From Escherichia coli (lineage in GTDB: Bacteria; Pseudomonadota; Gammaproteobacteria; Enterobacterales; Enterobacteriaceae): a DNA stretch of 1,241 nt. The DNA lies in NCBI RefSeq assembly GCF_003334765.1, contig NZ_QOWT01000080.1; one strand, written 5' to 3'. The notes below the pieces were generated by a model that saw only the letters and a list, made by a program, of their open reading frames with translations, ran no database searches and was not told the DNA's origin. Shown here piece by piece: positions 1 to 1,241 of the stretch. Positions within the stretch are counted from its first letter, which is position 1; every line of letters starts with the position of its first letter. The position numbers and the translations under genes are program-made.

Positions 1-15
1 AAATGTTCGTCTCAT
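1..15 (-). CDS. insI: IS30 transposase, first 5 codons only (MRRTF); the CDS continues off the left edge of the window
   Basis: ATG at 13-15 on the minus strand followed by AGA CGA ACA TTT; matches the remembered IS30 transposase start MRRTFTAEEKA. The symbol insI is the E. coli K-12 name for the IS30 transposase. Confidence 0.6.
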
Positions 16-51
16 TCAAAAAACCTCCGCAACCCCATGTTTTCACATAAC

Positions 52-77
52 TGTTGCGTTGACCAATTGAATCTACA
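52..77 (-). repeat. IS30 left terminal inverted repeat (about 26 bp), outer end at position 77
   Basis: Terminal TGTAGATTCAATTGGTCAACGCAACAG on the minus strand; the sequence changes abruptly at 77/78 into IS3-family orfA coding sequence. Exact IR length is recalled, not measured. Confidence 0.6.
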
Positions 78-340
78 GTTGCTTTTTTTAATATATCTCG
101 CTCAAGGCGAGCTTCATTTAACGCCTTACGCAGTTGCAGAATTTCAGATTCCAGTTCAGCCACCGTGCGGGAACCAGGAGTACCGAGCCCTTTTCTGGCG
201 GCGGTAACCCATTGTCCTAAAGTGCCTTCAGGAAGAGATAATCGGGAAGCGCCTTCACTGATCGAAAGTTGATTTTCAAGAACCGTTCTGACAGCTTCGG
301 CTTTGAACTCTTTAGAGTAACGTTGGGTTTTTCTGCTCAT
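78..340 (-). CDS. IS3-family (IS600-like) OrfA, N-terminal 88 codons, truncated by IS30. The reading frame stays open through the IS30 inverted repeat to the window start, giving a chimeric tail VDSIGQRNSYVKTWGCGGFLNETNI...
   Basis: ATG at 338-340 (minus strand); translation MSRKTQRYSKEFKAEAVRTVLENQLSISEGASRLSLPEGTLGQWVTAARKGLGTPGSRTVAELESEILQLRKALNEARLERDILKKAT, with a helix-turn-helix-like N-terminus and a heptad-Leu coiled coil typical of IS3-family OrfA. Strong AAGGAG Shine-Dalgarno 6 nt upstream of the ATG. Confidence 0.8.
83..89 (-). other. A7 slippery run (TTA AAA AAA GCA), the likely programmed -1 frameshift site that would join orfA to orfB
   Basis: Seven consecutive A on the minus strand, in the ILKKA segment at the orfA C-terminus. 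IS3-family elements use A6G/A7 slippery heptamers here to make the OrfAB transposase. The IS30 junction is only 6 bp downstream. Confidence 0.5.
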
Positions 341-346
341 TATTAG

Positions 347-352
347 CTCCTT
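347..352 (-). promoter_or_regulatory. Ribosome-binding site (AAGGAG) of the IS3-family orfA
   Basis: Minus strand reads AAGGAG-CTAATA-ATG, i.e. a consensus Shine-Dalgarno with 6-nt spacing to the orfA start codon. Confidence 0.7.
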
Positions 353-360
353 CTGATGCC

Positions 361-389
361 ATTCTATTTCAGGAAGGAGTGTCCGTTAA
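361..389 (-). promoter_or_regulatory. Candidate sigma70 promoter for orfA inside the IS left end: -35 TTAACG (384-389), 17-bp spacer, -10 TAGAAT (361-366)
   Basis: Hexamers read on the minus strand. The -10 matches TATAAT at 5 of 6 and the -35 matches TTGACA at 4 of 6. The position between the IS terminus and the orfA RBS fits the known location of IS3-family orfA promoters. Found by eye only. Confidence 0.35.
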
Positions 390-404
390 ACTCAGGCTAC
401 CTCA
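380..404 (-). repeat. Left terminal inverted repeat of the IS3-family element (approximate extent), outer end at 404
   Basis: Minus-strand terminal sequence TGAGGTAGCCTGAGTTTAACGGACA. The inner boundary cannot be fixed without the other end of the element. Confidence 0.5.
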
Positions 405-420
405 GCGTATCTCGGCATCA

Positions 421-1241
421 ATGCGCAAACAGCCTGATGCCCTTCGCTACGACCGCCAAACTATTTTTGGCCTTGTCCGTGAGCGTCCGATCGACATTCA
501 CAAAGATCCCGTAGCACTGAACAAATATATCTGCGAATACCTGACGACAAAGGGCGTGTTTGAGAATGAAGAAACAGACCTGGGCACTGTTGATGTTCTC
601 CAGTCATCAGAAACACAAACTGATGCAGTGGAAACTGAGGTATCTGATATCCCAAAAAATGAAACCGCGCCGGAAGCTGAACCATCTGTAGAGCGTGAGG
701 GGCCGTTCTATTTCCTCTTCGCAGATAAGGACGGAGAAAAATACGGTCGCGCAAACAAACTCTCTGGTCTGGATAAGGCACTGGCTGCTGGCGCCACTGA
801 AATCACAAAAGAAGAATATTTTGCCCGAAAAAATGGCACATACACGGGCTTACCGCAAAATGTAGATACCGCTGAAGATTCAGAACAACCAGAGCCGATA
901 AAAGTTACCGCTGACGAAGTAAACAAAATTATGCAGGCAGCCAATATCAGCCAGCCTGACGCCGATAAGTTGCTTGCTGCATCACGTGGTGAATTTGTTG
1001 AAGGGATTAGTGACCCGAATGATCCGAAATGGGTTAAGGGGCTCCAGACCCGCGATTCTGTGAACCAGAACCAGCATGAATCGGAACGGAACTACCAAAA
1101 AGCGGAACAAAACAGTCCAAATGCGTTACAAAACGAGCCAGAAACGAAACAGCCTGAACCAGTAGCGCAACAGGAAGTGGAAAAAGTCTGCACCGCCTGC
1201 GGTCAGACCGGCGGCGGCAACTGCCCTGATTGTGGCGCGGT
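421..1241 (+). CDS. recE: Partial CDS with no stop in the window: acidic protein with a CxxC-x7-CxxC zinc ribbon, probably the central region of a prophage RecE-like (exonuclease VIII) protein. Likely 5'-truncated by the IS insertion, so possibly a pseudogene or gene remnant.
   Basis: Frame 1 is open from 316 to 1241; the first in-frame ATG is at 421. Translation MRKQPDALRYDRQTIFGLVRERPIDIHKDPVALNKYICEYLTTKGVFENEE...EVEKVCTACGQTGGGNCPDCGA. The frame checks out at every 60-bp line start and the composition is coding-like. There is no Shine-Dalgarno upstream of ATG 421, which sits 17 bp from the IS terminus. The recE assignment rests on remembered similarity to the region upstream of the RecE nuclease domain and is not verified. 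Confidence 0.55.
   Translation, partial: MRKQPDALRYDRQTIFGLVRERPIDIHKDPVALNKYICEYLTTKGVFENEETDLGTVDVLQSSETQTDAVETEVSDIPKNETAPEAEPSVEREGPFYFLFADKDGEKYGRANKLSGLDKALAAGATEITKEEYFARKNGTYTGLPQNVDTAEDSEQPEPIKVTADEVNKIMQAANISQPDADKLLAASRGEFVEGISDPNDPKWVKGLQTRDSVNQNQHESERNYQKAEQNSPNALQNEPETKQPEPVAQQEVEKVCTACGQTGGGNCPDCGA
1189..1233 (+). other. CxxC-x7-CxxC zinc-ribbon-like motif (C-TA-C-GQTGGGN-C-PD-C) within the plus-strand CDS
   Basis: Four Cys codons at 1189-1191, 1198-1200, 1222-1224 and 1231-1233 in the CDS frame, separated by a Gly-rich loop. Confidence 0.6.

Follow-up and report, generated by a model that had tools for sequence, protein, structure and literature searches.

Nested IS600 and IS30 insertions in a prophage exonuclease gene of Escherichia coli and the chimeric OrfA frame at their junction

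Nested insertions in a prophage exonuclease gene

The window (the whole 1,241-nt stretch of Escherichia coli DNA analysed here) is made up of the left end of an IS30 element (positions 1-77, minus strand), the first 327 bp of the IS3-family element IS600 (78-404, minus strand) and, split by IS600, the C-terminal part of an exonuclease gene of prophage origin (405-1241, plus strand). The element ends were located by script, using the corresponding locus of E. coli ML35 (L001), in which the window spans 8001-9241. The sequence switches from IS600 to IS30 at window positions 78/77, where the 26-bp left inverted repeat (IRL) of IS30 (77-52, minus strand) begins, followed by the IS30 leader. The IS30 transposase ATG (15-13) and its GGAGG ribosome-binding site lie further along the same strand, inside the chimeric open reading frame (ORF) described below but in a different frame. 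In keeping with IS30, the element is 1221 bp long, its inverted repeats match at 23 of 26 positions, and a 2-bp AC duplication borders it on both sides; its transposase gene, annotated IS30, encodes a 383-aa protein in which HTH_38 and rve domains were identified. The AC copy on the left occupies positions 78-79 (minus strand), in the arrangement ...GCAAC-IS30-ACAGCG....

IS600 begins with the tip of its own left inverted repeat (TGAGG...) at position 404, and its orfA-derived codons occupy 340-78 on the minus strand. Computational removal of IS30 and one AC restored a 1264-bp IS600 with ends TGAGG...CCTCA, a length and terminal repeats expected of the IS3 family, together with an OrfA of 100 aa ending ...KKATAYFAQESLKNTR at its stop codon and an orfB that continues in the -1 frame. 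The helix-turn-helix (HTH)-encoding orfA, the -1 orfB and the slippery heptamer typical of the family are thus all present, with the two halves here separated by IS30. The -1 frameshift heptamer A AAA AAA, plus the following G, is retained at 82-89 (minus strand), 4 nt upstream of the junction. IS30 sits within this orfA/orfB frameshift region in the same orientation as IS600, and orfB has been pushed 1.2 kb away from orfA, so that this IS600 copy cannot make the OrfAB transposase. The target duplication of IS600 itself is 3 bp, again as in the IS3 family: CGC on both sides in ML35 (405-407; GCG on the plus strand) and AAC in strain Nissle 1917.

The interrupted gene encodes a RecE/exonuclease VIII-like protein that matched the PHROG 2082 'exonuclease' profile at positions 290-567 of 823 (E = 1.2e-171), and PGAP labels this part a pseudogene with a missing N-terminus. 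The pieces of the gene lie at 5529-5917 and 8403-10010 in L001, with the IS600 break near profile position 290 of 823, and the protein carries a Cys-rich stretch, CTACGQTGGGNCPDCG, near the end of the window. The surrounding locus is a Qin-like prophage remnant adjoining xis, int, rspAB and ynfA. An Rfam scan of the window matched no family.

The chimeric reading frame and its predicted product

Read on the minus strand from position 340 to position 1, the window holds 113 codons plus 1 nt without a single stop; the translation begins MSRKTQRYSK, runs to ...ILKKAT at the end of the IS600 part, continues with VDSIGQRNSYVKTWGCGGFLNETNI and ends in the window with ...ILKKATVDSIGQRNSYVKTWGCGGFLNETNI. 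The original prediction that the orfA frame stays open through the IS30 end and off the window was thereby confirmed, its tail matching letter for letter. Leftward extension, which it had called for, was carried out in ML35: the frame carries on for nine codons beyond the window (YSRGKSLCF) and then meets a TGA, which ends 29 nt left of window position 1. The complete ORF therefore encodes 122 aa, of which 88 derive from IS600 OrfA and 34 form a tail from the left end of IS30. It had also been argued that a stop immediately beyond the window, combined with a lack of detectable expression, would make the fusion biologically irrelevant; the first half of this pairing was found, the stop lying nine codons out, and a literature search returned no paper on the expression of IS600 OrfA or of insM, the K-12 counterpart discussed below. 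Short plus-strand ORFs within 1-340 were dismissed as antisense noise within orfA.

The tail had been ascribed to the IS30 inverted repeat as a whole, which is correct for approximately its first nine codons, encoded by the 26-bp repeat, and not for the remainder, which derives from the IS30 leader and the start of the transposase gene. The far end of the tail corresponds to the first 41 nt of that gene read in another frame, and the chimeric stop accordingly falls 41 nt after the transposase ATG. Predicted junction peptides include ATVDSIGQR and TWGCGGFLNETNIYSR. The IS30 terminus reads TG TAG, which shuts one of the three entry frames at once, while the two remaining left-end frames stay open for 21 and 34 codons; entry from the right end gives open frames of 18 and 28 codons. 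Since two of the three entry frames are open, any ORF that runs into IS30 has a roughly two-in-three chance of acquiring such a tail, whose sequence is fixed by IS30 and is identical whichever insertion sequence is struck. Judged from these frames, the 34-aa tail is an accident and no designed feature, its openness being no greater than chance would give.

The chimera retains residues 1-88 of the 100 residues of OrfA. A Pfam HTH_Tnp_1 domain was matched at residues 3-75 (E = 3.6e-20), and the zipper heptads L63, L70, A77 and L84 are present, with only F91 lost. The claim that the HTH and most of the coiled coil survive thus stands, with four of five heptad positions in place. The zipper is nonetheless incomplete, because F91, in the OrfA-specific last heptad, and the whole native C-terminus have been replaced. 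Single-sequence AlphaFold modeling was weak overall (mean pLDDT of 63.5), confident only for a helix at residues 61-90, and dropped to a pLDDT of about 40 past residue 100.

Upstream of the ORF, a Shine-Dalgarno sequence, AAGGAG (347-352, minus strand), was read directly 6 nt 5' of the orfA ATG (340-338). A consensus scan placed a promoter-like TTAACG-17 nt-TAGAAT (361-389, minus strand; 9 of 12 matches) inside the IS600 left end; one such site was found against 0.8 expected in shuffled sequences, so that its support is positional and not statistical. The 64-bp IS600 leader matches that of uninterrupted IS600 copies at 100% identity (rows H51 and H52), and the predicted intact promoter and ribosome-binding site are borne out to that extent. 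Since the leader is unaltered, transcription and translation of the ORF are probable, and its expression level would probably be low, as is usual for the left-end promoters of the IS3 family. A terminator-like hairpin, CTCGCTCAAGGCGAG then CTTCATTTAA, occurs at window positions 97-111 on the plus strand, opposite orfA; chance alone predicts a single site of this kind in the region.

Counterparts in other genomes and the IS30 landing site

The chimera is an ordinary nested insertion sequence scar that is already known and annotated. The 122-aa sequence is listed in public databases as 'transposase' and occurs on at least 1000 contigs. PGAP/RefSeq describes the chimeric ORF as a pseudogene ('transposase, incomplete, missing C-terminus'), and the K-12 curators likewise call the junction ORF a pseudogene, insM. 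In K-12 MG1655, insM (b4561) lies in KpLE2, and the feature annotated 'insertion sequence:IS600' / insM adjoins the left end of IS30D. As in the window, a 327-bp left part of IS600 meets the IS30 IRL, and the joint falls on the identical base; the K-12 sequence differs by a single nt from window positions 1-404, and its 122-aa ORF is the same except for E11K. The two differ in that the K-12 copy has lost the IS600 3' half and lies at a different chromosomal locus. IS30D itself (L009 2126-4802, equal to MG1655 4507125-4509801) has an IS600 half-site on its left flank and an inverted IS911 half-site on its right flank. It has no 2-bp duplication, which points to a later rearrangement, and the configuration looks like recombination or inversion between two IS30 copies, each inside an IS3-family element.

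A second K-12 counterpart is insN (b4587) in the CP4-6 prophage, an IS911A orfA 'regulator fragment' broken by IS30A after ...ILKKAT; the interruption of IS911 by IS30A in K-12 has been described (PMC9333248). Here too there is an AC duplication, the orientation is the same, the junction lies a few nt past the slippery run, and the ORF totals 122 aa with a 34-aa tail that is identical. The host element is IS911, unlike in the window, so that the N-terminal 88 aa are different though related. A comparable 122-aa 'IS911' ORF overlapping the start of an IS30 ORF was listed as early as 1998 in Table 1 of a paper on pColV-K30 (PMC2212542), where it adjoins hbp.

Entry through the other end of IS30 generates related products. 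Protein P0022 and its enterohemorrhagic E. coli (EHEC) variant P0018 combine IS600 OrfA, kept from residue 1 to between 86 and 88, with a tail encoded by the IS30 right inverted repeat (IRR). The IS600 site is the same, but IS30 is in the opposite orientation and the tail reads VDSICQCNTPFNYLF... instead. P0018, a 113-aa OrfA chimera found in 9487 collection blocks of the contig index, keeps only a 48-bp IS30 stub and shows an A-to-G change at the junction (GCAGC instead of GCAAC). The EHEC locus (L003 3937-4342), beside ureG/ureF, is composed of the IS600 5' part, the 48-bp IS30 right-end stub and unrelated DNA. Beyond these chimeras, the closest functional relatives are the IS3-family OrfA regulators, such as IS911 OrfA and IS2 InsA/OrfA, which share with the chimera an HTH_Tnp_1 domain followed by a leucine zipper and a left-end promoter (PMC2909936, PMC3299598). 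The chimera differs from them in that its last 12 native residues, the final heptad included, have been swapped for 34 unrelated ones.

The whole window was matched at 100% identity by ML35 and by no fewer than 27 further complete genomes, and the full arrangement is present in approximately 40 genomes. Searches of complete E. coli genomes with 505-nt junction queries, counted at a coverage of at least 80%, identified the same-orientation junction (IS600 left part plus IS30 left end) in 1268 of 5426 genomes, among them Nissle 1917 and strains derived from K-12, and the opposite-orientation junction (IS600 left part plus IS30 right end) in 351 of 5426; these genome counts do not represent independent events. 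About one in four E. coli genomes encodes OrfA'-tail proteins.

To compare the sites directly, the transposase protein was used to sample ten IS30 contexts. Of these, five were at the IS600 site, three at the IS911 site and two elsewhere, the three IS911-site contexts having the orientation opposite to that of K-12 IS30A. In IS600, IS30 occupied the same dinucleotide just past the -1 heptamer, and in IS911 the homologous one, with both orientations occurring in both elements (window 78-91; L008 2530-2545; L005/L006 4245-4265; L014, L015 and L019). The three remaining sites, namely the two sampled elsewhere and that of K-12 IS30C in ydbA, which was fetched separately, share, in this order, an A-rich run, G(C/T)N and the duplicated dinucleotide. 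A scan of species-representative genomes for the IS30 left end gave one match (Pantoea), too few for a target consensus. A preference of IS30 for its own ends or for hot spots that are nearly palindromic has been described (PMC9333248). These observations indicate that the chimera owes its frequency to a preference of IS30 for this sequence and not to selection, making it a predictable by-product of IS30 target preference. By landing regularly at one dinucleotide past the heptamer in IS600 and IS911, IS30 has placed the same odd tail on two proteins, and this regularity within the frameshift region is the point of wider interest. The importance of the chimera for biology is otherwise little, and its annotation value lies in showing that the 122-aa "transposase" database entries are products of a broken IS600.

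The 2487-bp IS600::IS30 composite was also observed at further loci (L012 3501-7240, in Nissle 1917, and L011 1473-3959). In Nissle 1917 it lies downstream of sat with an AAC duplication of its own, and ISEc52 interrupts the IS30 part in turn. Such copies elsewhere could reflect either repeated IS30 insertions or mobilisation in trans of a dead composite by an IS600 transposase; the IS30 copies differ at only 0-3 bases, so that SNP comparison cannot separate the two.

Origin of the chimera and its possible roles

The locus arose stepwise. IS600 first inserted into the exonuclease gene of the Qin-like prophage next to rspAB, generating the 3-bp duplication, and IS30 then entered IS600 in the same orientation, 4 nt after A AAA AAA G, generating the 2-bp duplication. 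This second event displaced orfB by 1.2 kb and ended OrfAB synthesis from this IS600 copy, and by chance the orfA frame entered an open IS30 frame for 34 codons through the repeat, the leader and the ribosome-binding site. The predicted product would resemble OrfA, keeping the HTH and most of the zipper and ending in a tail that is probably unstructured; it would act at most as a weak OrfA mimic and is most likely neutral. Very probably, then, the chimera is the scar of a nested insertion and no designed gene, common through IS30 preference and most likely neutral. The retention of the IS600 5' half with an intact chimeric ORF in very degraded remnants (K-12 KpLE2 and EHEC P0018) could hint at something more; it is equally well explained by hitch-hiking with IS30 or with the island. 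All copies of the chimera are nearly identical, which makes a test for selection impossible.

An alternative is that the 122-aa protein might function as a truncated OrfA that binds IS600 ends, or pairs with OrfAB through the zipper, and so dampens or redirects transposition in trans. The HTH, four of the five heptad positions, the leader and the ribosome-binding site are all present, and OrfA proteins of the family have regulatory roles: IS2 OrfA acts as a left-end repressor, and IS911 OrfA multimerises with OrfAB (PMC3299598). These precedents are of different kinds, since only IS2 OrfA has been reported to bind near the left-end promoter, whereas IS911 OrfA works by multimerising with OrfAB and not by end repression (PMC3299598). 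Potential targets exist as well, as intact IS600 occurs in 1638 of 5426 genomes and further IS600 3' halves occur in 30 of the 39 chromosomes carrying this locus. The number of 3'-half matches per locus-bearing chromosome ranged from 1 to 7 in these 39, a count that may include non-intact copies; the 30 had 1-6 matches in addition to the split copy, and the other 9 had the split copy only. With 9 of 39 chromosomes having no other IS600 3' half, and with many carriers, K-12 among them, lacking an intact IS600 that could be regulated (PMC3032704), the proposed target is often missing. In K-12 mutation-accumulation lines, neither IS600 nor IS30 transposed (PMC5009759). By analogy, the IS911 data weigh against end binding: specific binding there requires the zipper together with the M domain, a product of the orfB frame that the chimera lacks (PMC2909936). 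Furthermore, the last heptad, which is where OrfA and OrfAB differ, has been swapped for an unrelated sequence of low model confidence, and the accidental tail sequence does not depend on which insertion sequence was hit. The suggestion in the original prediction that the fusion could bind the ends of intact copies in trans is thus weakened and appears doubtful, and a working truncated OrfA is, in our judgment, unlikely.

The scar reading preferred here must also be set against the geometry of the junction itself. Slippage by -1 on the retained A AAA AAA G would yield a product of 109 aa, with a TGA that overlaps the start codon of the IS30 transposase (ATGA; window positions 12-15), an arrangement that, on sequence grounds, might suit translational coupling to the IS30 transposase. 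On a broader view, IS30 landing preferentially in the frameshift region of IS600 and IS911 would have consequences beyond a scar, either because the chimeras act as poison subunits that restrain IS600 and IS911 or because IS30 feeds its own transposase start through the ATGA while using the promoter, ribosome-binding site and frameshift site of its host element. Either outcome, if true, would be a case of one insertion sequence parasitising or policing another; we regard this broader view as very unlikely.

Also very unlikely is that the junction benefits IS30, with transcription and translation started at IS600 orfA raising transposase synthesis by read-through or coupling. The overlapping -1-frame stop, the retained heptamer, the passage of 0-frame ribosomes over the IS30 ribosome-binding site and the greater frequency of the same-orientation junction (1268 versus 351 genomes) are compatible with such a benefit. 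Nevertheless, both orientations exist, and genomes sharing a junction cannot be counted as independent events; the ATGA overlap is built into the IS30 end and would be given by any upstream ORF in that frame; the downstream sequence that naturally stimulates IS600 frameshifting is no longer in place; and no IS30 transposition was seen in the K-12 mutation-accumulation lines despite two such junctions (PMC5009759). Incoming transcripts could in addition be halted by a hairpin and U run just past the IS30 start, for which a simple terminator scan gave no flag. This 8-bp hairpin, CAGCAGAGG...CCUCUGUU followed by U5, lies on the minus strand at L001 7972-8000, immediately left of window position 1 and no more than 50 nt into the IS30 transposase gene, and could limit read-through. 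The 136-nt region folds with a z of -3.1 (RNA fold), and the stop codon of the chimeric ORF falls inside the U run of the hairpin.
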